Positions 48,777-62,921 of a stretch of DNA of 64,000 bases are shown here, piece by piece. The notes under the pieces are model-generated. The model was not told the DNA's origin, did not search any database, and saw only the letters and a program-made list of their open reading frames with translations. Source of the DNA: a virus (taxonomy: Duplodnaviria > Caudoviricetes); IMG/VR virus record IMGVR_UViG_3300026116_000035, one strand, 5' to 3'. Positions within the stretch are counted from its first letter, which is position 1. Each line of letters begins with the position of its first letter. A program made the position numbers and the translations under genes.

Positions 48777-50357
48777 ATGGAACCGTTAATTGCTGCATTT
48801 TTTTCTCATGATTCTTCTATTTGTATAAGAGATACTAATGGAAAATTTACAATATTTGAATTTGAACGTTTATTAAAAGAGCGTTTTGTTAAATTAACTG
48901 GAAGAAAAGATTTAAAGAATATTTTAATTAATCTTAAAGAAATAATAAAAAAAGATTATAATATTGAATCATTTAATATTTGTTATCATTTAGGGTTGAC
49001 CGAAGAAGAAAAAATAATATTAAATGAAGTATGGGGTATTTCGGATTTTCATGAAACTGGCCATCATTTATCACATGCTTCTTGTGCTTATTATCAAGCT
49101 CCATTTAATGAATGTTTAGTAATGTCATATGATGGTGGTGGATATGATGGCGGTTTTGAAGATGAAAGAATTGGCTATTTTAATGTTTATTATGTAAATG
49201 ATGGTATTTTTAAAAAGATAAATCATATAAAGTATGATTTAGGTACGGCTTATGGTTTATCAGCTATTCCTATAAGTGAAGTTCAAAAAACAGAAGAAAA
49301 TTGGGAAGAACGCTTTTTATCATTTAGTGGTAAAATGATGGGTTTAGTTGGATACGGTTCTGTTAGAGAAGAATGGCTAATTCCATTTAAGAATTTTTAT
49401 AAAGAGCATAAGCATGTTTCTTTAATTGATTTAAATAAAAGTTTAGCTCCATCTATTAATTTACCTTTAAATATTAATAGTTTAAGTGGACAAGATAGTT
49501 ATGATTTTGCAGCTACTTCACAGAGAGCATTTGAAGAAGTAATATATAAAGAAATTATTCATTTAATAAATTGTTATAAATTACCCATATGCTTAACAGG
49601 TGGCTGTGCATTAAATGTAATATTAAATCAAAAATTAAGTGATTTGTTAGGTAATGATAAAGTATTTATTCCACCAAATCCAAGTGATTGTGGATTAACT
49701 TTTGGAATGCTTGCTTATAAAACATCTCCGCAAAATGCTATAAATTTAATGTATGACGGATTTCCTATATTAGATATTGATGAATTATCTAAATATGTAA
49801 AAAAATATAATGCTAAAAAAATAAAATTACCTGAATTAGCCAAATTATTATATGATGGTAAAATTATTGGATTAATGAGAGGAAAATCTGAAGTAGGACC
49901 GAGGGCTTTAGGAAATCGAAGCATTTTATGTGACCCTTCTTATTCAGATATGAAAGATACATTAAATCATAAAATTAAATTTAGAGAATGGTTTAGGCCA
50001 TTTGCCCCAATATCTAAATTAGAAAATGCCAATAAATATTTTGAATTTAATGGTGACGCTTCTTTTATGTCTTTTTCTCCTAAAGTTAGAAAAGAATATT
50101 TAGGTAAAATACCAGCTGTAGTTCATAAGGATAATACAGCTAGATTGCAAACCATCTCTGAAAAGCAAAATAAATACATATATGATTTATTAACTGAATT
50201 TGAAAATTTGCGTGGCATTGGGTGTTTATTAAATACTTCTTTTAATATAAAAGGAAAGCCAATATTAACTACGATTAAAGATGCAATTGAAGTATTGGAA
50301 ACTACACAAATAGATGCTGTGATTATTGAAGATTATTTATTTGAAAGAATTAAATGA
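48777..50357 (+). CDS. O-carbamoyltransferase (NodU/CmcH/TobZ family)
   Basis: HDSSICI; HHLSHA; SYDGGG; GKMMGL; TGGCALN; PPNPSDCG; SEVGPRALGNRSIL; KFREWFRPFAP; LLNTSFN. Confidence 0.95.
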   Translation: MEPLIAAFFSHDSSICIRDTNGKFTIFEFERLLKERFVKLTGRKDLKNILINLKEIIKKDYNIESFNICYHLGLTEEEKIILNEVWGISDFHETGHHLSHASCAYYQAPFNECLVMSYDGGGYDGGFEDERIGYFNVYYVNDGIFKKINHIKYDLGTAYGLSAIPISEVQKTEENWEERFLSFSGKMMGLVGYGSVREEWLIPFKNFYKEHKHVSLIDLNKSLAPSINLPLNINSLSGQDSYDFAATSQRAFEEVIYKEIIHLINCYKLPICLTGGCALNVILNQKLSDLLGNDKVFIPPNPSDCGLTFGMLAYKTSPQNAINLMYDGFPILDIDELSKYVKKYNAKKIKLPELAKLLYDGKIIGLMRGKSEVGPRALGNRSILCDPSYSDMKDTLNHKIKFREWFRPFAPISKLENANKYFEFNGDASFMSFSPKVRKEYLGKIPAVVHKDNTARLQTISEKQNKYIYDLLTEFENLRGIGCLLNTSFNIKGKPILTTIKDAIEVLETTQIDAVIIEDYLFERIK

Positions 50358-51121
50358 AAGACATACAATTTACTTTTGGAATAATTACACAATCTACTAC
50401 AGAGGCGTCTGAACATTTAAAATTATCCATTAATTCTATTATTAATTTAAATATTCCCGAATATCAAATTATTATTATAGGAGATGGATTTAATTTAAAA
50501 AATGATAATTTTTTATTATCACTTAATAATATTAAAATAATAGACTTTGATTATACAATTAAAAAAGATTGGATAACAAGAAAGAAAAATTTAATTACAC
50601 AAAATGCTAAATATGAAAATATAGTTTACCAACATGATTATATTTCTTATGAACAAGATTGGTATGAAGGCTTTAAAGTATATGGTGATGATTTTAAAGC
50701 TTGTATGACTAAGATATTAAATAATGATAATACGCGTTTTAGGGATTGGGTATTATTCCCTTGGCATCATTGTTACGGTGAGAATTATATTAAAAAGGCT
50801 AAAGAATTGTGGGAATTTGCTAATATTCAAAATAATGAAAGTATGATTCCTTATAATGAAACGCGATTTAGTAGATTTCAATATTTTTCAGGATCTTACT
50901 GGGTAGCTAAAAAACAAATAATGTTAGAAATACCTTTAGATGAAGGATTAGTTTGGGGGCAGGGGGAGGATTGTGTATGGTCATCTCAATTTAGCTCAAA
51001 ATATAATTTTAGTATGAATGCAAATTCTACGGTTAAACTATTAAAATGGAAACAAGATGCATTTAGTATAATTCGTCCAGAATGCTATGAAAAAGCCATT
51101 AAATACATTGAAAATAGCTAA
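50354..51121 (+). CDS. GT-A fold glycosyltransferase (GT2-like)
   Basis: FTFGIIT; WITRKKNLITQNAKYENIVYQHDY; GQGEDCVWS. Confidence 0.7.
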   Translation: MKDIQFTFGIITQSTTEASEHLKLSINSIINLNIPEYQIIIIGDGFNLKNDNFLLSLNNIKIIDFDYTIKKDWITRKKNLITQNAKYENIVYQHDYISYEQDWYEGFKVYGDDFKACMTKILNNDNTRFRDWVLFPWHHCYGENYIKKAKELWEFANIQNNESMIPYNETRFSRFQYFSGSYWVAKKQIMLEIPLDEGLVWGQGEDCVWSSQFSSKYNFSMNANSTVKLLKWKQDAFSIIRPECYEKAIKYIENS

Positions 51122-51138
51122 TATTGTTATATTAAGAT

Positions 51139-51945
51139 ATGGTTAAAAAAGTTGTAGTTTCCATACCTGTTCATGAAGAACCGTTAGTAGTAGCAGATCA
51201 TTTAAGAAATATTAAAAAATTTGTACCTGATTCATTTGTAGTTCTTCATGCTTCGGCGGATAGTCCAAGTCCATTTAAAAACATATTGAATGATATGTCT
51301 AAAAATGAATTTGATGGATTTATGTATGTTAATGATATTTCTTATCATACCCATGCACCGAATGAAGCTGGATCTGTTTATGGATTAAGTACAGTACATT
51401 CATCTAATTTTCAATTTGCAAATAAAGTAATTTCAGATTTTGATGTTTTTGCTTTAGAAACATCAAATGACATGTTTGTAAGAAAAGGTGTTGAACGACT
51501 TTGGAATAACTTTAAATGTGGATGTGGTGCTAGAAAAAATGATTTATCCGCTTATAGAAATGTTCGCGAAAAAGAAGTGATTGATATACTTAATATTGTT
51601 ATACCATTAAAAACTATTGAAATTCATGCTCAGGAGGGAACATTTTATCCCAAAGAAGTGTTTAGTGAAATTTCAAATATTATATTAAATAAGCTTGGTG
51701 GATTTATTGCACATGAAGAATTAGTACTTCATACATTGGCATTTAATTTATTTCCTGAATTATATGATAGTAATTGTGGTGAGGGATATATGTTTCATAA
51801 TGCAACTCATTATGCCACTACTAATGAAGATATTTTAAAAGTTAAAAATGGAATATTAAATAATAAATATGCCGTTAAAAGAGTTCCTAGAAGGATAAAT
51901 GATCCTTGTAGAATTTTTGTTAATAAGGTTAATGAAAATGAATAA
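51139..51945 (+). CDS. Hypothetical protein, possibly GT-A-like
   Basis: VVVSIPVHE...FVVLHAS and TSNDMFVR suggest a Rossmann-like GT-A fold; family not recognised. Confidence 0.45.
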   Translation: MVKKVVVSIPVHEEPLVVADHLRNIKKFVPDSFVVLHASADSPSPFKNILNDMSKNEFDGFMYVNDISYHTHAPNEAGSVYGLSTVHSSNFQFANKVISDFDVFALETSNDMFVRKGVERLWNNFKCGCGARKNDLSAYRNVREKEVIDILNIVIPLKTIEIHAQEGTFYPKEVFSEISNIILNKLGGFIAHEELVLHTLAFNLFPELYDSNCGEGYMFHNATHYATTNEDILKVKNGILNNKYAVKRVPRRINDPCRIFVNKVNENE

Positions 51946-52297
51946 AAGACCTTATACACTTATTATAGATATAGATGGAACATTAATTAAACATTCTGGT
52001 GATATTTGTCATCAATATACAGAAGAAATTGAAATTTTGCCAGGTGTTATTGAAAAATGGAAAGAATTTGATATTGCAGGTCATAATATAATATTAATAA
52101 CTGGAAGAAGAGAAAGTAATAGAAAATTTATTGAAGAAAAATTACAAGATGCAGGATTGTTTTGGGATCAATTAATAATGGGTGTCGGGGGAGGAAATCG
52201 GATTTTAATTAATGATCTAAAACCTTTAAGTGAAGAACCTACAGCAATAGCTATAAATGTAAGACGAAATACAGGATTAAAGGATATAAAAATATGA
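51932..52297 (+). CDS. Small HAD-superfamily phosphatase
   Basis: Motif I DIDGT; motif II ITGR; IND at motif IV. Confidence 0.8.
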   Translation: MKMNKRPYTLIIDIDGTLIKHSGDICHQYTEEIEILPGVIEKWKEFDIAGHNIILITGRRESNRKFIEEKLQDAGLFWDQLIMGVGGGNRILINDLKPLSEEPTAIAINVRRNTGLKDIKI

Positions 52298-52635
52298 AAT
52301 TTGTAGAAAAACCTTGGGGTTCTGAAAAAATCATTATATTAAATAATATTGTATTAAAAGAATTATTTATGAAGGCCGGTTGTAAATGTAGTTTACAATA
52401 TCATAATTTTAAAAATGAAATTATCAGAGTTTTAAGTGGTAAATTAAAATTATCTTATTCACCAAATAAAGAAACATCATTAATTAATTTAGAATTATCG
52501 CCTGGTGATAGTTTTGCTATTGAACACGGAATTATACATAGAATGGAGGCTATTGAAGACTCAATTTATATTGAAGCATCATCTAATGAATTAGATGATG
52601 TTATTCGACTTGAGGATTCATATGGCCGAGTATAA
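52294..52635 (+). CDS. Cupin protein (mannose-6-phosphate isomerase type II-like)
   Basis: EKPWG; CSLQYH...E; GDSFAIEHGIIHRM. Confidence 0.85.
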   Translation: MKFVEKPWGSEKIIILNNIVLKELFMKAGCKCSLQYHNFKNEIIRVLSGKLKLSYSPNKETSLINLELSPGDSFAIEHGIIHRMEAIEDSIYIEASSNELDDVIRLEDSYGRV

Positions 52636-54187
52636 AGTTCTTTTAACAGCCTCCGGTATTGGTCAAAGACTCGGCGATTTAACTAAATATACTAATAAAT
52701 CTTTAGTTAAAATTGGTAAAAAACCAGCTATAAGCTATATAATCGAACGATATCCAGATGATGTAGAAATTATTGTTACATTAGGTTATTTCGGAAATCA
52801 AGTAAAAGAATTTTTAACATTAGCTTATCCTGAAAAAAAGTTTAATTTTATTAATGTTGATAAATATGAAGGTTACGGCAGTAGTTTATTATATTCAATG
52901 TTATGTGCAAAAGACGAATTACAATGTCCATTTATATTTCATGCTTGTGATTCTATTATTTTAGATGAACCTATTCCATCATTAGAAGATAATTGGCTTG
53001 GCGGGTATAATAAAACTGATAGTGCTCAATATAGAACATTTAATATTGAAAATGAATTTGTTAAAAAAATCAATGAAAAAGGTGAAATGTCCTATGATTT
53101 TGAATACATAGGCGTTTGTGGTATAAAGGATTTTGATTTATTCTGGAAAACAGCTGAAAAAATTTATTTTAATTATTCAGAAGACAGTTCATTATCTGAT
53201 TGTCATATATTTAAATTTATGATTAAAAAAATAATATTTAAATACTACATATTTAATTCATGGTTAGATATTGGAAATATTTATTCTTTAAAGAAAGCGC
53301 GAGAATTTATTTATGATAAATTTGAAATTTTAGATAAATTAGATGAATCAATTTTTATAATTAATAATTTTGTTATTAAATTTTTTTATGATGTTAATAT
53401 AGTTAAAAATCGCGTTATTCGTGGTGAAAGTTTACTTCCAAACGTTCCTAAAATAACAGGATCAACAAATCATTTTTATAAATATGATTATGTTGAAGGT
53501 AAATTATTTTCTAAATCAGTTAATGAAGTTAAATTTAAACAATTTTTAGAATGGGCTAATAAAGAAATATGGTCAAATAAAATTATAGAAAATTTTAAAG
53601 AAAGCTGCTTTGATTTTTATATTACGAAAACTTATAATAGAGTGAATAAATTTTTAATAAATAATAATATTATTGATAAACAAGATTGCATTAATGGAAT
53701 TTTAGTACCGTCTATTGCTGATTTAATGAAATTAGTAAAAGAATATAATATCATTGACGGAATACCAGTTAATTTTCATGGAGATTTTATTTTGGATAAT
53801 ATTATTGAAACTGATGATGGATTTATGCTTTTAGATTGGCGACAAGATTTTTCAGGAAAAACTTCTGGCGGAGATTTATTTTATGATTTAGCCAAATTAA
53901 ATCATAATCTTACAGTGAATCATGATGTAATTAATAAAAATTTATTCGAAATACATGTAAATAAAGACAATTCTATTAATTGTGATATTTTAATTAATTA
54001 TAAATTAGTTGAATGTAATAAAATTCTTAAAGAATTTATTAAAAATAATAAATATGATTATAAAAAAATACAAATAATTACAGGATTAATTTGGATTAAT
54101 ATGAGCCCCTTACATCATTATCCATTTGATCAATTTTTATTTTATTTTGGTAAATATAATTTATTTAAAGCTTTAGGAATGGAATGA
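52622..54187 (+). CDS. Nucleotidyltransferase fused to an APH/choline-kinase-like phosphotransferase
   Basis: N-term LLTASGIGQRLGDLTKYTNKSL; C-term HGDFILDNI, LLDWR, YDLAKL. Start at ATG 52622. Confidence 0.85.
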   Translation: MAEYKVLLTASGIGQRLGDLTKYTNKSLVKIGKKPAISYIIERYPDDVEIIVTLGYFGNQVKEFLTLAYPEKKFNFINVDKYEGYGSSLLYSMLCAKDELQCPFIFHACDSIILDEPIPSLEDNWLGGYNKTDSAQYRTFNIENEFVKKINEKGEMSYDFEYIGVCGIKDFDLFWKTAEKIYFNYSEDSSLSDCHIFKFMIKKIIFKYYIFNSWLDIGNIYSLKKAREFIYDKFEILDKLDESIFIINNFVIKFFYDVNIVKNRVIRGESLLPNVPKITGSTNHFYKYDYVEGKLFSKSVNEVKFKQFLEWANKEIWSNKIIENFKESCFDFYITKTYNRVNKFLINNNIIDKQDCINGILVPSIADLMKLVKEYNIIDGIPVNFHGDFILDNIIETDDGFMLLDWRQDFSGKTSGGDLFYDLAKLNHNLTVNHDVINKNLFEIHVNKDNSINCDILINYKLVECNKILKEFIKNNKYDYKKIQIITGLIWINMSPLHHYPFDQFLFYFGKYNLFKALGME

Positions 54188-55191
54188 ATAGAAATGGTTT
54201 AAAAGAAATTAAATTATATGTCGGTCCAATGACAAAAAATGTTGTTGATGCAGTTATTGAATTTGCGAATAAATTTAATATTAAAATAGGGTTTATTCCA
54301 TCTAGAAGGCAAATCGAATTTGATCAATCTGGATATGTTAATAATTGGACCACCAGAACTTTTATGCAATATATTAGGTCAAAAACCAATTTAATAGGTT
54401 TAGAAAGAGATCATGGTGGTCCTAATCAAGGTTTAACTAATGATGATGGATTTGCTAGTTTATTTCAGGATACTCAGAATTTTGATATTGTTCATATTGA
54501 TGTTTGGAAAAAATATCCCAATTTTGATGATGGTGTTAAAAAAACTATAGAATATATTAAATATTGCCATAATGTAAATCATCTTACTTTGTTTGAAGTT
54601 GGTACTGAGCAAAGTATTAGGCCATTTAATTTATTCGAATTAGATAATTTTTTATTTGAACTCCAGCATAATTTAACTAATGAAGAATTTAGTAAAATAC
54701 TTTATTGTGTTATTCAATCTGGCACTTCTTTAAAAGGAACAATTAATACTGGAAAATATGATTCTGTAAAATTAAAAGATATGTGCTATATTGTAAATAA
54801 ATATAATATATTATCTAAAGAACATAATTCCGATTTTGTTGATATAAATGAAATATATGATAGATATAATAATGGATTAAATGCTATTAATATTGCTCCA
54901 GAATTTGGACAGATTGAAACTAATTGCATTTTGGAATTAATTAATAATAATGCTTATTTATTAAATATATTTTATACAATATGTCTAAATTCTAATCGAT
55001 GGGTTAAATGGGTAGCTTCAAATTTTAAGCCTGAAGATAATAAAATTGAATTAATTAAAATCTGTGGACATTATGTATTATCTGATCCGAAAATGAAAGA
55101 AATTATAAGTAAATTTCCTGAATTGTCTGATTTAGTCAAACAAGGTGTATTTGAAAAGTTATATAGTATATTAACTCCAAGGATATCATGA
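54184..55191 (+). CDS. TIM-barrel protein resembling the GatZ/KbaZ/UxaE ketose epimerase family
   Basis: IPSRRQIE...GY; LERDHGGP; YCVIQSGT; KEHNSD; INIAPEFG. Confidence 0.55.
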   Translation: MNRNGLKEIKLYVGPMTKNVVDAVIEFANKFNIKIGFIPSRRQIEFDQSGYVNNWTTRTFMQYIRSKTNLIGLERDHGGPNQGLTNDDGFASLFQDTQNFDIVHIDVWKKYPNFDDGVKKTIEYIKYCHNVNHLTLFEVGTEQSIRPFNLFELDNFLFELQHNLTNEEFSKILYCVIQSGTSLKGTINTGKYDSVKLKDMCYIVNKYNILSKEHNSDFVDINEIYDRYNNGLNAINIAPEFGQIETNCILELINNNAYLLNIFYTICLNSNRWVKWVASNFKPEDNKIELIKICGHYVLSDPKMKEIISKFPELSDLVKQGVFEKLYSILTPRIS

Positions 55192-55820
55192 TAAAAGGAA
55201 TTTTATACGATTTAGATAATACTTTATGTTATTGTGCTGATTGGCATAAATTAGCCTTAAATAAAGCATTAAAAGAAATATGTGGATTTGAAATTTCAGA
55301 AGATGAACATATTTCTACATTTAATGGATTACCAACCAAAAAGAAATTAGATTTATTAATTAATCAAAGACGAATTAAAATAAATGATTATGATTTAATT
55401 TCTCAAAAAAAACAAGAATATACAAAAGATATAATTTTTGAAGAAGCAATTGTAGACCCAATAAAAGTTAAATTACATCGGCAAAATAAATTAAATGGAT
55501 TAAAATCAGCATGTGTTACTAATAGTATTACTGAAACAGCAGCATTAATTTTAGAGAAAACTGGACAATTACAATATATGGATTTTTTAATTTCTAATGA
55601 AGTAGTTAAATATCCTAAACCGCACGGAGAAGGATATATTATCTCTATGATTAAATTAGGAATTTATCCTTCTGAAACTCTTATCGTAGAAGATAGTCCT
55701 GTTGGAATTCAAGCTGCAAAATCTACTGGAGCTCATGTCTGGGAAGTTAAAGATTCTATTGAAGTTACTTATGAAAATTTCCAGCAATTTATAAGTTCAA
55801 TAAATATAAGAAAGGTATAA
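55188..55820 (+). CDS. HAD phosphatase (beta-phosphoglucomutase-like)
   Basis: YDLDNTL; VTNS; YPKPHGEGY; IVEDSPVG. Confidence 0.9.
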   Translation: MIKGILYDLDNTLCYCADWHKLALNKALKEICGFEISEDEHISTFNGLPTKKKLDLLINQRRIKINDYDLISQKKQEYTKDIIFEEAIVDPIKVKLHRQNKLNGLKSACVTNSITETAALILEKTGQLQYMDFLISNEVVKYPKPHGEGYIISMIKLGIYPSETLIVEDSPVGIQAAKSTGAHVWEVKDSIEVTYENFQQFISSINIRKV

Positions 55821-56546
55821 ATGGCTTTAAATATTTTGGTGCCTATGGGTGGAAAGGGCCGGAGGTTCGCAAATCTTGGGTACACATTCCCTAAACCATT
55901 AATAGAAGTTCAAGGTAAACCTATGATTCAAGTTGTTGTTGAAAATTTGAATTTAGATGGAAAGTATATATTTTTGGTTTCTAGAGAACATTATACAAAA
56001 TATGCTTTAAATTATTTATTACCATTAATAACAAAACCATATCAATGTGAAATTATTATTGAAGAACCTCCTATTTATGGAGCAGCTTATGCTTGTCTTT
56101 TAGCCAAACATTTAATAAATAATGATGATAATTTACTTATAGCTAATTCTGATCAATGGATAGATTATGATCCGGAAAGTTTTTTAAAATCAGTTAAAAA
56201 TGTTGATGGAGCTATTTTAACATTTTATGGTACACATCCTAAATGGAGTTTTAGTAAAATTAATGAAGAAACTGGTTTTATTTCCGAAGTGGCAGAAAAA
56301 CAACCAATTAGCACAAATGCCAATACAGGAATATATTATTGGAATAAAGGTAGCGATTTTATTTCATCAGTAGAAGAAATGATTGCTGATGAATTTAAAG
56401 TGAACAATGAATATTATGTAGCTCCTTCTTATAATTATTTAATTAATAAAGGTAAAAAAATAATTAATTATCCAGTTAAACAAATGTTTGGAATTGGAAC
56501 TCCAGAAGATTTACAAAATTTTTTGCAATTAAATATTAAGGTTTAA
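55821..56546 (+). CDS. Sugar-phosphate nucleotidyltransferase
   Basis: ILVPMGGKGRRF...PKPLIEV; ANSDQ; HPKWSF; AEKQPIS; EYYVAPSYN; GTPEDL. Confidence 0.9.
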   Translation: MALNILVPMGGKGRRFANLGYTFPKPLIEVQGKPMIQVVVENLNLDGKYIFLVSREHYTKYALNYLLPLITKPYQCEIIIEEPPIYGAAYACLLAKHLINNDDNLLIANSDQWIDYDPESFLKSVKNVDGAILTFYGTHPKWSFSKINEETGFISEVAEKQPISTNANTGIYYWNKGSDFISSVEEMIADEFKVNNEYYVAPSYNYLINKGKKIINYPVKQMFGIGTPEDLQNFLQLNIKV

Positions 56547-56549
56547 TAA

Positions 56550-57215
56550 ATGTTGATATTGACACGAACAGCTTGTTTAGGTGGGGAAGTTATAAATTAT
56601 AAAATTGGTGGAAATCATGATTTTTATAATCAGCAAAAAGTTAGAGTTGATATGTTTAATGAAGTTGTAAGTGGGAATACAATTAAACCTAAAAAATCTG
56701 AAATATTACCTTGGTTAGCTGATGCATCTGATACTGGTGGAGTTTATTCACAATCAGAAGAATTTAGATGGTTTACTATTAATAGTAAACCAAACTATTT
56801 AATTATGGATAATTATTCCGAACTTGTTGATAAACAAATAATTCATAAAGATGGTTGGTCTTTTTGTGGTGTTTATGGTGATTTTAAACATGAGGCATTT
56901 ACAAGTAGTACTTTTATTGATGGCAGTCTTTTACCTCTTGATAAGATTTATGATTCTTATGATAATTTTTTCCAATTTGTAAAAAACAAATGGAATATTC
57001 CTATTATTTTTATTCATTTTCCTACAATTTTTGATCATAGAGAAATGTATATAAATCAGGGAATAGCAATAACTGATGCTTTAAATATACTTGCTCCTAA
57101 ATATAATATACAAAATATTCATGCAGACTTATCAGAAATAGAAAAACAAGATAGTAATTATTATCATTTTACAAAAAGAACATTTAAAAACTTGGCTGAT
57201 AAGATTATTATTTAA
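56550..57215 (+). CDS. Hypothetical protein, possibly SGNH-like
   Basis: YLIMDNYSELVD and the terminal DSNYYHF resemble SGNH-type D-x-x-H regions; weak. Confidence 0.4.
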   Translation: MLILTRTACLGGEVINYKIGGNHDFYNQQKVRVDMFNEVVSGNTIKPKKSEILPWLADASDTGGVYSQSEEFRWFTINSKPNYLIMDNYSELVDKQIIHKDGWSFCGVYGDFKHEAFTSSTFIDGSLLPLDKIYDSYDNFFQFVKNKWNIPIIFIHFPTIFDHREMYINQGIAITDALNILAPKYNIQNIHADLSEIEKQDSNYYHFTKRTFKNLADKIII

Positions 57216-57231
57216 TATAAGGTAAATTTAA

Positions 57232-57921
57232 ATGTTAAAATATAATGATTTAATAAATATAATGAATGAAACTGAATATAAATTAGTTCCATTTTATAAA
57301 GGATTACGTATGGAAACTCATATGAATCCTGTTTCTATTGCCGAACCAGAATTTAATTTTATTTATGATTTTATTTTAAACAATAAATTAAAAAAAGGTT
57401 ATGAAGTTGCTACTGCTTTTGGTATTTCAATGTTGGCGGCAGGATTAGCGTTTAAAGAAACAAATGGTAAATTAGTTACAATGGATGCTTATATAGAAGA
57501 GCAATTTAATAGTTGCTCTTCATATGATGAAAAACACACAATTACTTATCAAAATTCAGATGGATTTAAAACTGCCACTAAATTAATTGAAATATTTAAA
57601 TTAGAAAATACAGCATCATTAAATGTAGGATTTAGTCCAACAGACACTTTTAATGTAATTAAAAATACATTCGATAATGAAAAATTAGATTATGTTTTTA
57701 TAGATGCTTTACATACAGAAGAAGCGGTAATAAAAGATATTGAAGCAGTATTACCATTTTTAGATGAAAAATTTGTTTTATTTTTGCATGATGTACATTG
57801 TTTTGAATCTGGTAAAGTTCAAAATTATGTTTACGAAAAATTTGGAACCGCTTGGACTGTAGCTAAAGGTTGTGAACATCCTGGCGAAGGTTACAATTTA
57901 TCTTATATAAATAAATTATAA
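57232..57921 (+). CDS. Class I SAM-dependent methyltransferase (Methyltransf_24-like)
   Basis: YEVATAFGIS; LDYVFIDALHTEEAVIKD; LFLHD. Confidence 0.85.
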   Translation: MLKYNDLINIMNETEYKLVPFYKGLRMETHMNPVSIAEPEFNFIYDFILNNKLKKGYEVATAFGISMLAAGLAFKETNGKLVTMDAYIEEQFNSCSSYDEKHTITYQNSDGFKTATKLIEIFKLENTASLNVGFSPTDTFNVIKNTFDNEKLDYVFIDALHTEEAVIKDIEAVLPFLDEKFVLFLHDVHCFESGKVQNYVYEKFGTAWTVAKGCEHPGEGYNLSYINKL

Positions 57922-57983
57922 TTTAATATTTAAATAAAATATAAAATGTTCGATAAGAATTTGATAATCACATATTTAATTAT

Positions 57984-58448
57984 ATGAATAAAGTTCTGAT
58001 CTGTCACAAAGGTAACATCGCTGGACCAAATCCATTAAGAGAAAATCAGCCAGAATATTTAAAAGAAGCTTTAAATTTAGGTTTTCATGTAGAGACTGAT
58101 GTTTGGTTATTAAATAATACATTTTATTTGGGTCATGATAGGCCAGAATATATAATAAATTTTGAATTTTTATTGAATGAAAAAGTTTGGGCTCATTGTA
58201 AAAATTTAGCAGCTTTAGATGCTTTAATATTAGAACCTGATGCTAATTGTTTTTTTCATGATAAAGATGATTTCACTTTAACTAGTAAATGTTATATATG
58301 GACATATCCGAGAAATTTGAGATTAACTTCAAATTCAATAGCTGTTTTGCCTGAAAAAGTTAAGAATTGGAATTTAAAAGGTTGTCATGGAATTTGTACG
58401 GATTATGTTTTAAGTTATCAACGTTGGGATGAAGAAGGTAAAATATAA
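57984..58448 (+). CDS. GDPD-like phosphodiesterase-fold protein
   Basis: ICHKGN...ENQPEY; VETDVW; LGHD; WAHCKN; FFHDKDD; ICTDY. Confidence 0.7.
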   Translation: MNKVLICHKGNIAGPNPLRENQPEYLKEALNLGFHVETDVWLLNNTFYLGHDRPEYIINFEFLLNEKVWAHCKNLAALDALILEPDANCFFHDKDDFTLTSKCYIWTYPRNLRLTSNSIAVLPEKVKNWNLKGCHGICTDYVLSYQRWDEEGKI

Positions 58449-58483: not shown

Positions 58484-59491
58484 TTGATGAAGAATGTTGA
58501 AGAAAATAAAGTTTGTAGTATTACTGGAATAAACGGCCAAACTGGTAGTTTTTTAGCTGAATTATTACTAGAAAAAGGATATAAAGTTTATGGCATGGTT
58601 AGAAAAAGCTCTGTCTTTAACACGGAAAGAATTGAAAATATTTATAATCATCCAAATTTAAAACTTATTTATGGCGATTTGGCTGACACATTAAGTGTTG
58701 TAGATTTTATTACTCAAACTAGGCCTGATTATTTTTTTAATTTAGGTGGATTATCACATGTTAGAACCAGTATAGATATGCCTTTATCAGCTATTGATGT
58801 TGATGGTCTAGGTGTTGTTAGATGCTTAGAAGGGATTAGAAAATATAGTTCTCATACACGATTTTTACAAGCATCAACTTCAGAATTATTTGGTAATTCT
58901 CCTGCACCACAAAATGAACTTACCCCTATGGTTCCATGTAGCCCTTATTCAATAGGAAAATTGACTGGATATAGTGCTGTTAATTATTATAAACTCGCAT
59001 ATGGAATGTTTGCTGTAAATGCAATTAGTTTTAATCATGAATCATATCGCAGAAATCCAACATTTGTAACAAGAAAAATTACAAAAACATTATCAGAAAT
59101 AAAACTCGGATTAAAAACTGAATTAAATTTAGGAAATTTAGTCTCAAAACGCGATTTTTCTCATGCTTCGGACGTTGCTGAAGCTATGTATTTAATGATT
59201 ACTGCAGAAAATCCGGAAAATTATGTAATATCGAGTGGAGAAACTTATTCAATTGAACAATTTTTAGATTTAGTAGCTGCAAAATTAGAATTAAATTGGA
59301 AAGATTATGTTAAATTTGATAAACGATTGTTGAGACCTGTAGAAGTTAATTGTCTTTTAGGAGATAGTACTAAAATTCGTACAGAACTTTCATGGAAGCC
59401 AAAATATAATATTAATTCATTAGTGGATGAAATGGTTGAATATGATTTAAAATTGGCTAGACGGCAATTATTATTAAAAAATAATGAATAA
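58484..59491 (+). CDS. gmd: GDP-mannose 4,6-dehydratase
   Basis: TGINGQTGSFLAELL; YGDLAD; LGGLSHV; QASTSELFG; SPYSIGK; FNHES...FVTRKI; GNLVSKRD. Confidence 0.95.
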   Translation: MMKNVEENKVCSITGINGQTGSFLAELLLEKGYKVYGMVRKSSVFNTERIENIYNHPNLKLIYGDLADTLSVVDFITQTRPDYFFNLGGLSHVRTSIDMPLSAIDVDGLGVVRCLEGIRKYSSHTRFLQASTSELFGNSPAPQNELTPMVPCSPYSIGKLTGYSAVNYYKLAYGMFAVNAISFNHESYRRNPTFVTRKITKTLSEIKLGLKTELNLGNLVSKRDFSHASDVAEAMYLMITAENPENYVISSGETYSIEQFLDLVAAKLELNWKDYVKFDKRLLRPVEVNCLLGDSTKIRTELSWKPKYNINSLVDEMVEYDLKLARRQLLLKNNE

Positions 59492-59500
59492 AAGGAATAA

Positions 59501-60457
59501 ATGAGAGTTTTAATTACCGGTTCCAATGGCATGCTTGGAAGAAATTTAATATCTAAATTATTACAATCAAGTTCCAGTCATACATTTTTAACTCCATCTT
59601 CTAGTGAATTAGATTTAAGTAATTCTGGTCATACTTGGGATTATTTTTACAAATTTAAACCTGAAATAATAATTCATTTAGCCGCCTTTGTTGGAGGAAT
59701 TGGATTAAATAAAAAACAACCAGCCGATTTAACTCATTTAAATTTAAAAATGACTGTTAATTTATTTGACGCCATACGAGAACATAAGACAAAATATTTC
59801 TATGGCATGGGTTCAGTTTGCTCTTATCCTAAATTTCTACCCCACGGTTTAAATAAATTTTCAGAAGAAGATATGTGGGGTAAACGTAGCGAATTTACCA
59901 ATTTCGGATATGGCGAAAATAAGAAAATGATGATCGTTGAATTCGAAACCCATAAAAGACAATATGGTTTAAAAGGTGCTAATTTAGTTTTATGTAATAT
60001 GTATGGACCTCACGATCATTTTTTTGATCTAGAAAATTCCCATGTTATACCCGCCTTAATAAGAAAATTTTATGAAGCTAAATTAAATAATTTACCACAA
60101 GTTGAATGTTGGGGAACAGGTAAGGCAACTAGAAGTTTCCTTTATGTTGAAGATGCTTGTGATGCTATTTCAAAAGCTTTAAATATGAAATTAGATACAG
60201 ATGAATATATAAACATTGGTCCCGAAGATGATATATCAATATTAGATTTAGCTAATATGATCTCTGAATTAGTTGATTATAAGGGAAATATAGTTTTTTC
60301 TGGAGAATTAGATGGACAACCAAAACGTTTATTATCTGTAGAAAAGGCTAAATCAATATTAAATTGGAAAACTGAAACTGAATTAAAAATTGGATTAATG
60401 AAAACTATCGAGTTTTATAAAGAAAATAGATTAAATTATGTAAGTGAATCAAAATGA
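59501..60457 (+). CDS. fcl: GDP-L-fucose synthase (epimerase/reductase)
   Basis: TGSNGMLG; HLAAFVGGI; GSVCSYP; YGENK; NMYGPHD; SHVIPALIRK; WGTGKATR. Confidence 0.92.
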   Translation: MRVLITGSNGMLGRNLISKLLQSSSSHTFLTPSSSELDLSNSGHTWDYFYKFKPEIIIHLAAFVGGIGLNKKQPADLTHLNLKMTVNLFDAIREHKTKYFYGMGSVCSYPKFLPHGLNKFSEEDMWGKRSEFTNFGYGENKKMMIVEFETHKRQYGLKGANLVLCNMYGPHDHFFDLENSHVIPALIRKFYEAKLNNLPQVECWGTGKATRSFLYVEDACDAISKALNMKLDTDEYINIGPEDDISILDLANMISELVDYKGNIVFSGELDGQPKRLLSVEKAKSILNWKTETELKIGLMKTIEFYKENRLNYVSESK

Positions 60458-62886: not shown

Positions 62887-62921
62887 ATAGCCTATATATT
62901 TATTATAAGTATATAGGCTAT
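62887..62921 (+). terminator. Near-perfect hairpin after the tubulin gene
   Basis: ATAGCCTATATA (62887-62898) pairs with TATATAGGCTAT (62910-62921), extendable inward with one G-U pair, and is followed by ATTTATTT. Confidence 0.6.

Follow-up and report, generated by a model that had tools for sequence, protein, structure and literature searches.

What is made by the nine-gene run that holds a four-enzyme cassette inside the large sugar-coat gene cluster of a huge soil phage? The window analysed here is a stretch of 64,000 nucleotides from this virus (Duplodnaviria; Caudoviricetes; IMGVR_UViG_3300026116_000035). On its + strand, 51899-58448 is filled by nine co-directional ORFs (A to I in Table 1); four of their junctions overlap and the remaining gaps are 0-62 nt. 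The run is thus as claimed in an earlier note made from the letters of the DNA, and the labels given there to A (HAD), B (cupin), C (nucleotidyltransferase-kinase fusion), D (GatZ-like), E (HAD), F (second nucleotidyltransferase) and H (methyltransferase) all agree with the evidence presented below. The ORF of A opens at 51899 and its homologues begin near 51932, which from sequence comparison is likely the true start because it matches the length of the homologues. The true start of C is likely 52622, since the gene as called in the database encodes 521 aa.

Table 1 Genes of the run and the adjoining Gmd and Fcl genes
Feature	Coordinates	Strand	Assignment
A	51932..52297	+	minimal capless HAD phosphatase (HAD-IIIA/PNKP-like), putative AfhF/GmhB-like step
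B	52294..52635	+	type-II phosphomannose-isomerase (PMI)-like cupin, putative sugar-6-P ketose/aldose isomerase
C N-terminal domain	52622..53320	+	sugar-phosphate nucleotidyltransferase (NT)
C C-terminal domain	53321..54187	+	APH/choline-kinase-fold kinase, AfhE-CTD-like
D	54184..55191	+	GatZ/KbaZ-like TIM barrel, probable ketose-phosphate C4-epimerase
E	55188..55820	+	HAD-IA hydrolase, beta-phosphoglucomutase family (phosphatase or mutase)
F	55821..56546	+	second sugar-1-phosphate nucleotidyltransferase
G	56550..57215	+	SGNH-fold protein, TviD_N/DUF6270-like; candidate glycan O-acyl transferase or esterase
H	57232..57921	+	class I SAM methyltransferase (Methyltransf_24)
I	57984..58448	+	virus-only protein family travelling with E-F
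Gmd (J) and Fcl (K)	58484..60457	+	context: GDP-mannose to GDP-L-fucose

We searched with HMMs of A, B, the NT and kinase domains of C, and D, required all of them within 9 kb, and counted non-redundant viral loci with at least 3 kb on each side. A to D occur all together in 87 of the 89 loci, most often in the order B|C|D|A (37 loci), followed by A|B|C|D (14) and by B-C fused|D|A (12); where the contigs were binned as giant-virus MAGs, the strands are mixed. Relatives have A-B, B-C, D-C and D-A fusions, the last of these in P0017, where D is joined to a HAD, and D is elsewhere joined to SnoaL. The cassette ranges over hundreds of viruses and tiny bacteria, and is found on MAG/SAG contigs labelled Saccharibacteria, Legionellales, Alphaproteobacteria and Pelagibacteraceae. 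The earlier proposal was open to refutation by the genes being absent together elsewhere, and A to D co-occur. No published description of the A-D cassette was found in the literature. We conclude that these genes are a widespread cassette of four enzymes, of which the present phage holds one copy.

Among characterised systems the phage Afh route to UDP-D-arabinofuranose comes closest. In HY126 it consists of an arabinose-5-P isomerase, AfhE and AfhF, with genes elsewhere in RB69 (gp55, gp52:53 and gp51) and DLP3 (gp83-81) (PMC13326640). AfhE and AfhF of HY126, whose counterparts are RB69 gp52/53 and gp51, are reported to act as kinase, then phosphatase, then UDP-sugar pyrophosphorylase (PMC13326640). 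With hhalign, the kinase domain of C matches RB69 gp52 (probability 94%, E = 1.6e-7), with the motifs HGD..N and D.R..FG....YD.AK in common; its NT domain matches gp53 (77%, E = 2e-5), and A matches gp51 (97%, E = 6e-11). RB69 was not found by tblastn at 1e-5, the similarity being too low. Both systems have a bifunctional protein in which a nucleotidyltransferase at the N-terminus is joined to a kinase of the APH fold at the C-terminus, a HAD phosphatase of ~120-130 aa, and the logic of aldose-n-P to 1,n-bisphosphate to 1-phosphate to NDP-sugar. They differ in the isomerase, a PMI-type cupin in A-D and a SIS-type API in the Afh route, and in the GatZ-like enzyme that is obligatory in A-D. The kinase, phosphatase and nucleotidyltransferase logic that the earlier note had recognised is therefore upheld by the remote homology of C and A to the RB69 proteins. 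Its statement that the set could not be matched to a characterised pathway no longer applies to the back half, which maps onto the Afh route published in 2026; the front end differs from that route.

Among the relatives of C and A, the only ones characterised take part in the arabinosylation of DNA (PMC13326640), and the activated sugar could likewise go into phage DNA as a hypermodification, the fate of UDP-arabinofuranose in RB69, DLP3 and HY126, instead of into a protein or cell-surface glycan. The locus proteins, all soluble, would fit this use: no TM-like segment was found in any protein of 38.6-62.9 kb (glycan locus and tubulin gene). We regard it as highly improbable. The Afh genes lie in a 5-hydroxycytosine DNA modification cluster, whereas the cassette lies in a glycan locus, behind the tail module and among fucose-type genes; it is also present in CPR bacteria and other cells; and the 84.6-kb record (~20% of the genome) has no thymidylate-synthase-like gene.

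A carries the HAD motifs DxDxT, TGR and ND, with D13xD15, T57 and D95 conserved in the alignment of homologues, and resembles the HAD-IIIA/GmhB class; its HAD matches in Pfam and NCBIfam are all sub-threshold. The kinase domain of C has the motifs HGDxxxxN and DWRQDF and an AF2 model with a pLDDT of 94.3, for which Foldseek returned ethanolamine/choline kinases, APH(2''), maltokinase, MTR kinase and NahK, a ranking by which sugar kinases cannot be told from choline/ethanolamine kinases. In a PDB profile search the NT domain matched LicC (1e-10), RmlA (6e-9) and HddC (7e-7). With LicC as the best PDB sequence match of one domain, and ethanolamine/choline kinases and LicA as the best fold matches of the other, C might directly activate a phospho-alcohol or ketose phosphate, as in LicA/LicC or CDP-alditol synthesis. 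A teichoic-acid-like decoration would then be supplied with a polyol or ketose linked to CDP. An AroE-like reductase inside the cassette in 17 other loci is in keeping with such a product, but it is absent from this window. Since this scheme leaves the obligatory PMI cupin and HAD unexplained, and the RB69 homologue of C is an AfhE-type enzyme, we consider it very unlikely. MurU is among the weak matches of both NT domains, and the MupP/AmgK/MurU system of UDP-MurNAc recycling likewise combines an anomeric kinase of the APH fold with a HAD phosphatase and a small nucleotidyltransferase. There, however, the phosphatase acts first and the kinase on free sugar, the genes are unfused, and there is no isomerase or epimerase. 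In 63 of 77 loci no NTP-transferase other than C lies within 10 kb, and many of those loci also have NDP-sugar dehydratases, DegT aminotransferases and glycosyltransferases.

B scores 24.4 bits against PF01050 (threshold 23.6). Q35, H37, E42 and H82 are invariant across homologues, and so are D102, R105, D108, Y110 and R112 of the C-terminal motif (D/E/Y)DV(I/V)R..D.Y.R; B retains the PMI metal ligands. The cassette has no GmhA/SIS isomerase by Pfam and NCBIfam, as the earlier note had observed, and the role of GmhA is filled by B, a predicted PMI-type isomerase. This bears on the resemblance to the route to GDP-/ADP-D-glycero-D-manno-heptose (GmhA, HddA or HldE, GmhB, HddC), which has the same order of isomerase, anomeric kinase, distal phosphatase and nucleotidyltransferase, a HAD-IIIA phosphatase and, in HddC, a relative of the C NT domain. 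That route differs in its SIS isomerase and GHMP or ribokinase-type kinase, and lacks a GatZ-like step. The shared step order, the likeness of A to GmhB and the HddC profile match would all be accounted for if the substrate were the phosphate of a heptulose or of another ketose that is not a hexose (sedoheptulose-7-P, for instance, with manno-heptulose-7-P as its epimer) and the product an NDP-heptose of unusual configuration. This is unlikely in our judgement: the full PMI-type signature of B, including the C-terminal Arg motif, is suggestive of a fit to hexose-6-P geometry, and J, the neighbouring 4,6-dehydratase, is by its scores a Gmd (310 bits to the Arabidopsis enzyme) and not a heptose 4,6-dehydratase (104 bits).

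The AF2 model of D (pLDDT 89.8) best matches the GatZ-family structures 3txv and 2fiq in Foldseek (E = 5e-14 to 1e-12), with class II aldolases next. The hhalign probability against GatZ is only 34%, and D has no Pfam match, falling below the PF08013 threshold. In the alignment D76/H77/E142/H214, all invariant in 28 relatives, fall on D87/H88/E171/H257 of E. coli GatZ. The family includes the fructose-6-P/tagatose-6-P C4 epimerases E. coli GatZ and KbaZ and an A. tumefaciens enzyme; for GatZ, the Asp-His, Glu and His are predicted to provide zinc binding and the base, and conversion of F6P to T6P by GatZ and KbaZ has been reported in vivo (PMC11907403). D is shorter than GatZ (335 vs 420 aa), has Ile38 in place of Glu44 and an invariant Arg pair, R41 and R42, at the positions of S47 and N48, and would be anabolic where GatZ is catabolic. 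Because the Glu44 equivalent is missing and the two Arg are invariant, its substrate is perhaps other than F6P. Searching with the kinase domain gave 78 loci, 76 of which have D; D also occurs without the rest of the cassette in marine Flavobacteriaceae. We regard it as a probable ketose-phosphate C4-epimerase. A true aldolase, joining DHAP and an aldehyde into a new ketose phosphate ahead of phosphatase, isomerase, anomeric kinase and nucleotidyltransferase, would agree with the class II aldolase superfamily of D, with the common gene orders, which are rotations of D-A-B-C, and with the D-A, A-B and B-C fusions, each of which would couple consecutive steps. It is nonetheless quite unlikely, given that the D site is of the two-His-plus-Glu type of GatZ and not the three-His type of FBA/TBP aldolases (PMC11907403), that AfhE, a homologue of the kinase, reportedly uses a sugar phosphate and not a free sugar (PMC13326640), and that B resembles an isomerase of phosphosugars.

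Our preferred reading rests on the folds and motifs, on co-occurrence and gene fusions, and on the remote homology to the Afh genes of RB69. In this reading A to D probably start from a central ketose phosphate and make a rare NDP-activated sugar, with no need of a phosphomutase; all substrates, the nucleotide used and the acceptor are inferred. D, as a GatZ-type metal-dependent C4 epimerase, would convert a ketose 6-phosphate to its 4-epimer, most likely fructose-6-P to tagatose-6-P. B would turn the ketose phosphate into an aldose-6-P, expected to be D-talose-6-P if the stereochemistry is as in PMI. The C kinase domain would then act on the anomeric hydroxyl to give the 1,6-bisphosphate and A would remove the distal phosphate, an order suggested by analogy with AfhE/AfhF, leaving the 1-phosphate for conversion to the NDP-sugar by the C NT domain. 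This and other donors may supply ~8 soluble glycosyltransferases encoded upstream of A-D, and the acceptor is probably cytoplasmic, for example virion proteins; the lack of TM-like segments across 38.6-62.9 kb is in keeping with this reading.

The neighbouring genes bring in a further alternative. J is a true Gmd and K, with 161 bits to the GDP-fucose synthetase of E. coli, a true Fcl; a GT11 gene is present in the locus, and in two other loci (L131 and L137) Gmd/Fcl-like genes lie immediately 5' of B-C-D-A with no other nucleotidyltransferase detected. The cassette could therefore be a phosphomutase-free route to GDP-mannose, with B as PMI, the kinase and phosphatase replacing ManB and the nucleotidyltransferase serving as ManC, its product passing to Gmd/Fcl and fucosyltransferase-like enzymes and D having a side or scaffolding role. 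Were the cassette to feed Gmd/Fcl, C4 epimerisation would be undone by the 4,6-dehydratase, which counts against our preferred reading. The PMI type of B fits either. We consider the GDP-mannose route rather unlikely, as D is inseparable from C in the counts above, its invariant catalytic set would be superfluous, Gmd is present in just 27 of 114 loci, and F, whose best PDB matches are 4evw (1e-17) and then, as its best named relatives, mannose-1-P guanylyltransferases (3e-9), offers an alternative supplier within the window.

E (PF13419, HAD-IA, 1e-21; 75.7 bits to TIGR02009, under the 153 cut-off) and F (PF00483, NTP_transferase, 6e-18) are a module separate from A-D, because an E- or F-like gene occurs in only 24 of 114 loci, against the 87 of 89 with A to D, and E and F are fused in 13 related loci. 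They may form a second, separable NDP-hexose supply, possibly of GDP-mannose to the neighbouring Gmd/Fcl. The two modules fit the earlier suggestion of two donors; its reading of all nine genes as a single pathway was not borne out, and A to I do not form one pathway. G and H are local tailoring genes, which may modify the glycan, and stand outside the shared pathway because they have no counterpart in the 114 related loci (no homologue for G, none past the BLAST filter for H). H matches PF13578 (Methyltransf_24, 2e-11), and a TylF/Methyltransf_24-type gene lies within the cassette in ~10 other loci. The SGNH-like label of G stands as a lead only: SGNH, TviD_N and DUF6270 clusters are nearest in the ESM Atlas (feature scores 0.91-0.97; structure TM 0.72-0.78, and 0.92 to one unnamed cluster), and there is no Pfam or PDB sequence match. 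For I, the GDPD-like label is unsupported: GDPD came up only weakly, with a score of 0.85 and on 25% of one cluster's members. I instead matches phrog_34507 (3e-23), its Atlas neighbours are viral hypothetical proteins throughout, and it is present in 21 of the 114 loci.

The nine-gene run at 51932-58448 encodes, in order, a small HAD protein (A), a phosphomannose isomerase (PMI)-type cupin (B), a nucleotidyltransferase-kinase fusion (C), a GatZ-like barrel (D), a HAD-IA protein (E), a second nucleotidyltransferase (F), an SGNH-like protein (G), a methyltransferase (H) and a member of a virus-only family (I). All nine ORFs delimited in the earlier note are present and tightly packed, with 4-nt overlaps at the A/B, C/D and D/E junctions, a further overlap between B and C, and gaps of 0-62 nt elsewhere. 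Eight of the nine labels assigned there hold; "GDPD-like" for I is a weak lead at most. The genes around the run all lie on the + strand, with a G+C content of 24-29%, and the run is enclosed by a glycan locus that follows the tail genes. Promoter and terminator scans stayed at chance level within this locus. The window corresponds to bases 7981-71980 of an 84.6-kb IMG/VR record with a CheckV completeness of ~20%. A 390-kb contig is recorded as carrying this D protein too.

Coordinates of features in the window and in the related loci compared (L-numbers)
Feature	Locus	Position
Glycan locus (23 kb)	window	38.6-61.4 kb
About eight glycosyltransferases (GT1, GT2, GT11, a Glyco_trans_1_2 protein)	window, glycan locus	
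NodU-type carbamoyltransferase	window, glycan locus	
Gmd, Fcl and RfbB-like 4,6-dehydratase	window, glycan locus, after the nine genes	
Protein of 255 aa without family assignment	window	50354-51121
Protein of 154 aa without family assignment (I)	window	57984-58448
TubZ-like tubulin gene	window, after Gmd, Fcl and the RfbB-like gene	
Strong hairpin with 16-bp stem, after the tubulin gene	window	62887-62921
Cassette HAD, sequence types	L131; L147; L023	11562-11939; 9018-9404; 2961-3359
Inserted or fused extra enzymes (AroE-like, C-methyltransferase-like, TylF, SnoaL_2-D)	L032; L032; L045; L035	9384-10007; 10944-12080; 9456-9995; 9992-11302
Lone D-like gene, Flavobacteriaceae	L005-L025, e.g. L010	9995-10972
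D-like gene and neighbors, Sinorhizobium shofinae scaffold	L027	3431-8068
RB69 AfhE counterpart (ORF052c/053c)	L194	10095-11781

The first four genes form a cassette that recurs as a unit. A profile of D matched 222 viral contigs and one of the C kinase domain 436; we took 80 viral loci from each search and scanned them with an HMM of each part. This gave 115 non-redundant loci with the kinase, 89 of them flanked by 3 kb or more on each side. Of these 89 loci, 87 have all four cassette genes within 9 kb. Of the loci found through the kinase alone, 76 out of 78 carry D, and the two exceptions end <500 nt from the kinase gene. The order B|C|D|A is found in 37 loci, the A|B|C|D order of the window in 14, and a fused B-C followed by D and A in 12; several mixed-strand orders are on contigs binned as giant-virus MAGs. 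Related loci contain A-B, B-C and D-C fusions, and the protein database contains fusions of D with a HAD and with SnoaL_2. Contigs assigned to Legionellales, Saccharibacteria, Alphaproteobacteria and Pelagibacteraceae carry the cassette as well, and close homologs of C are listed under Gribaldobacteria, Moraniibacteriota and other Patescibacteria. Among cultured phages there was no relative with both C and D, the only record being one uncultured marine virus, and a literature search found no paper describing the cassette. We class the cassette with sugar-activation systems of the kinase-phosphatase-nucleotidyltransferase kind; it occurs widely among large viruses and bacteria with small genomes.

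The closest characterized system is the Afh route, by which phages synthesize UDP-arabinofuranose. According to PMC13326640, the bifunctional AfhE of phage HY126 phosphorylates arabinofuranose-5-phosphate to the 1,5-bisphosphate, the HAD enzyme AfhF strips the 5-phosphate, and UDP-arabinofuranose is finally formed by the N-terminal domain of AfhE. The RB69 counterparts are gp52:53 and gp51, supplied by the arabinose-5-phosphate isomerase gp55 (PMC13326640). As annotated in AY303349, the RB69 counterpart of AfhE is two overlapping ORFs, a split attributed in PMC13326640 to a sequencing error. C resembles AfhE in joining an N-terminal NTP-transferase to a C-terminal APH-fold kinase in one polypeptide. 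Its nucleotidyltransferase domain aligns with RB69 gp53 (hhalign, 77% probability, E 2e-5) and its kinase domain with gp52 (94%, E 1.6e-7), the latter two having the motifs HGD..N and D.R..FG....YD.AK in common. A is a minimal HAD with conserved DIDGT, TGR and ND motifs that aligns with RB69 gp51 (97%, E 6e-11), and would fit the small Mg-dependent HAD phosphatase partner of the Afh route. The HADs of the cassette fall into two sequence types. One has DIDGT...TGR...ND, like A of the window; the second has DLDDV...TAR...DDK, motifs nearer to those of gp51, and was missed by plain tblastn with A. At the level of sequence, the back half of the cassette (A and C) is thus a remote relative of an experimentally demonstrated route, and the kinase therefore likely acts before the phosphatase, as in NDP-heptose synthesis. 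The analogy with the kinase, phosphatase and nucleotidyltransferase logic of that pathway, drawn in the earlier note, gains support from the RB69 homology of A and C. Neither GmhA (a SIS isomerase) nor a heptose kinase of the GHMP or ribokinase type was found, the kinase here having the APH/ChoK fold. The cassette differs from the Afh route in two respects: a PMI-type cupin stands where the latter has a SIS-type arabinose-5-phosphate isomerase, and there is an additional, obligatory GatZ-like protein.

Profile matches of the N-terminal NTP-transferase of C are to LicC (1e-10), RmlA (6e-9) and HddC (7e-7). The C-terminal domain is modeled with a pLDDT of 94 as an APH/choline-kinase-type fold, and the fold ranking does not name a substrate, all matches having E-values of 1e-6 to 1e-4 and TM-scores of ~0.5. 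A phosphocholine pathway of the LicA/LicC type was considered, given that LicC is the best PDB sequence match and that the top-ranking folds are those of choline/ethanolamine kinases. Sugar enzymes, however, score about as well as LicC and LicA, which both rank among the best matches of C, and no LicB or LicD partners were seen. In view of the homology with the RB69 Afh proteins and of three obligatory partners (the cupin, the GatZ-like protein and the HAD), we set this reading aside.

B scores 24.4 bits with PF01050 (type-II phosphomannose isomerase domain), above the gathering threshold of 23.6. Its Gln/His/Glu/His metal site (Q35, H37, E42 and H82) is invariant in 21 aligned sequences, and the C-terminal motif (D/E/Y)DV(I/V)R..D.Y.R is kept in all 21. 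The intact PMI signature points to a ketose/aldose isomerase acting on hexose 6-phosphates. No SIS/API isomerase was matched in the nine genes, in agreement with the reported absence of GmhA, and none among the two ORFs that precede the run or the three SDR genes that follow it. B occupies the position of the SIS isomerase in the cassette.

The assignment of D as a GatZ-like barrel is borne out by its predicted fold and by an aligned Asp/His/Glu/His set. In Foldseek, the model (pLDDT 89.8) best matches the two GatZ-family proteins of solved structure, 3txv (5.5e-14) and 2fiq (1e-12), with class II FBP/TBP aldolases ranking behind them. GatZ and KbaZ of E. coli, long annotated as aldolase chaperones, convert fructose-6-phosphate (F6P) to tagatose-6-phosphate in vivo (PMC11907403). 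The predicted zinc site of GatZ is His88, Glu171 and His257, with Asp87 as base, whereas true class II aldolases use three His (PMC11907403). Overall, the profile of the D family matches E. coli GatZ weakly (34% probability, E 4e-4). Like GatZ, D has a modeled TIM barrel and residues at the four predicted zinc-site and base positions: D76/H77/E142/H214 align by hhalign with GatZ D87/H88/E171/H257 and are invariant across 28 relatives. The second His of FBA-type enzymes is absent from D. D of the window has no Pfam match, and a relative reaches 21.8 bits with PF08013, below the threshold of 26.7. D also departs from GatZ in having an invariant Ile (Ile38) at the position of Glu44, invariant R41 and R42 where GatZ has Ser47 and Asn48, and a length shorter by 85 residues. 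Its substrate therefore need not be F6P.

D-like genes also occur outside the cassette. Many marine Flavobacteriaceae MAGs and SAGs have a lone D-like gene, 44-53% identical to viral D, at a conserved housekeeping site where its neighbors encode a beta-lactamase-like protein and the succinate dehydrogenase Fe-S subunit. A role as the sole FBP aldolase of these bacteria was rejected, as four of the five genomes searched keep a canonical PF01116 class II aldolase. A strong PMI-cupin match lies elsewhere in four of the five genomes, once inside a polysaccharide locus, and a C-type kinase was found in none of the five. A distant D-like gene (30% identity) on a scaffold of Sinorhizobium shofinae is accompanied by genes for a cupin, a DegT-type aminotransferase, a HAD-IA hydrolase and a DeoR regulator, apparently a distinct though related sugar-phosphate pathway, here in a bacterium that has been cultured. 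A D-like gene of 25% identity is present in four database entries labeled as Listeria phage contigs (LM 4-11-1 / 4-14-1).

These assignments suggest a route in which D would epimerize a ketose 6-phosphate at C4 and B would turn the epimerized ketose into an aldose 6-phosphate. Phosphorylation by the C kinase domain would then give the 1,6-bisphosphate, A would take off the distal phosphate, and the nucleotidyltransferase domain of C would form the NDP-sugar. A hexose-type NDP-sugar, used as such or modified further, is indicated because 63 of 77 loci have no NTP-transferase other than C within 10 kb and because other viruses insert an AroE-like reductase or methyltransferases in the cassette. 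Specifically, 17 loci encode a 207-aa AroE-like protein (shikimate dehydrogenase N-domain) between C and D, 23 have a gene for a C-methyltransferase-like protein between D and A, and about ten contain one for a TylF-type O-methyltransferase within the cassette. Together with the SnoaL_2 fusion, these insertions hint at variant products. The same enzymes could in principle serve as a route to ordinary GDP-mannose, a reading favored by those viral loci in which the cassette comes immediately after Gmd- and Fcl-like genes; we nevertheless consider this unlikely, because the association of D with the cassette is invariant, which disfavors plain mannose.

A more speculative possibility is a sugar nucleotide new to biochemistry, with candidates such as NDP-D-talose or a different 4-epimeric hexose or heptose derived from a glycolytic ketose phosphate. 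On this reading, it would be a signature sugar of huge phages, giant-virus-like genomes and CPR bacteria, and would here glycosylate the virion proteins of the phage in the cytoplasm. If the substrate were F6P and B kept the stereochemistry of PMI, the product might be NDP-D-talose itself, a more specific proposal that we regard as rather doubtful. None of the 26 proteins encoded between 38593 and 62921 has a TM-like hydrophobic segment, so a flippase, a polymerase, a permease and a membrane-bound initiating transferase are all lacking from the locus. We favor an acceptor in the cytoplasm, for example virion proteins, because all proteins of the locus are soluble and because the locus follows the tail genes. 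DNA as the acceptor, as in the Afh phages, seems very improbable. The Afh route is linked to a 5-hydroxy-dCMP synthase (a ThyA homolog) and DNA glycosyltransferases; the 84.6-kb record, ~20% of the genome, contains no thymidylate synthase/ThyA-like gene (PF00303).

If the proposed route is correct, a phosphomutase-free combination of epimerase, isomerase, 1-kinase, phosphatase and nucleotidyltransferase would rank among the commonest sugar-activation modules of large viruses, with relatives of the kinase domain on 436 viral contigs and of the GatZ-like protein on 222, and with the cassette in CPR bacteria as well. The identity of the sugar would enlarge the microbial glycan alphabet by one building block and provide a marker of virus-made glycans. 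Afh chemistry, a recent discovery made with a single DNA sugar, would also be widened into an enzyme platform of general scope. The four cassette enzymes are small and soluble.

The interpretation in the earlier note was largely right, but the nine genes have to be divided into two modules plus tailoring genes. An E- or F-like gene is present in 24 of 114 loci, and in 13 loci of the D-profile set E and F are joined in a single protein. E scores best with beta-phosphoglucomutase-family models of NCBIfam, all below cut-off (TIGR02009, 75.7 bits versus 153; TIGR01990, 61.5 versus 189), and an E-F fusion reaches 98.8 bits against the cut-off of 153; E may be a mutase or a phosphatase. The nearest match of F, the second NTP-transferase, is an uncharacterized NDP-sugar pyrophosphorylase structure, followed by mannose-1-phosphate guanylyltransferases. 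Downstream of I, the Gmd-like gene is confirmed as a Gmd gene, its product scoring 310 bits with the enzyme of Arabidopsis and 104 with a heptose 4,6-dehydratase; an Fcl-like gene accompanies it. Gmd is present in 13 of 24 loci with E-F versus 14 of 90 without (Fisher test, P = 2e-4), an enrichment that is only suggestive because the loci are interrelated. G has no sequence-family match, and its ESM Atlas neighbors are TviD_N, DUF6270 and SGNH clusters, so that "SGNH-like" stands as a lead; H is a Methyltransf_24 enzyme. Counterparts of G and H were found in none of the 114 loci. A reasonable, if unproven, reading is that E and F provide the GDP-mannose needed to make fucose, with G and H tailoring the glycan. 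I occurs in 21 of the 114 loci and the gene that starts at 50354, upstream of the run, in 17, largely the same loci as E-F, and both may belong to this second pathway.
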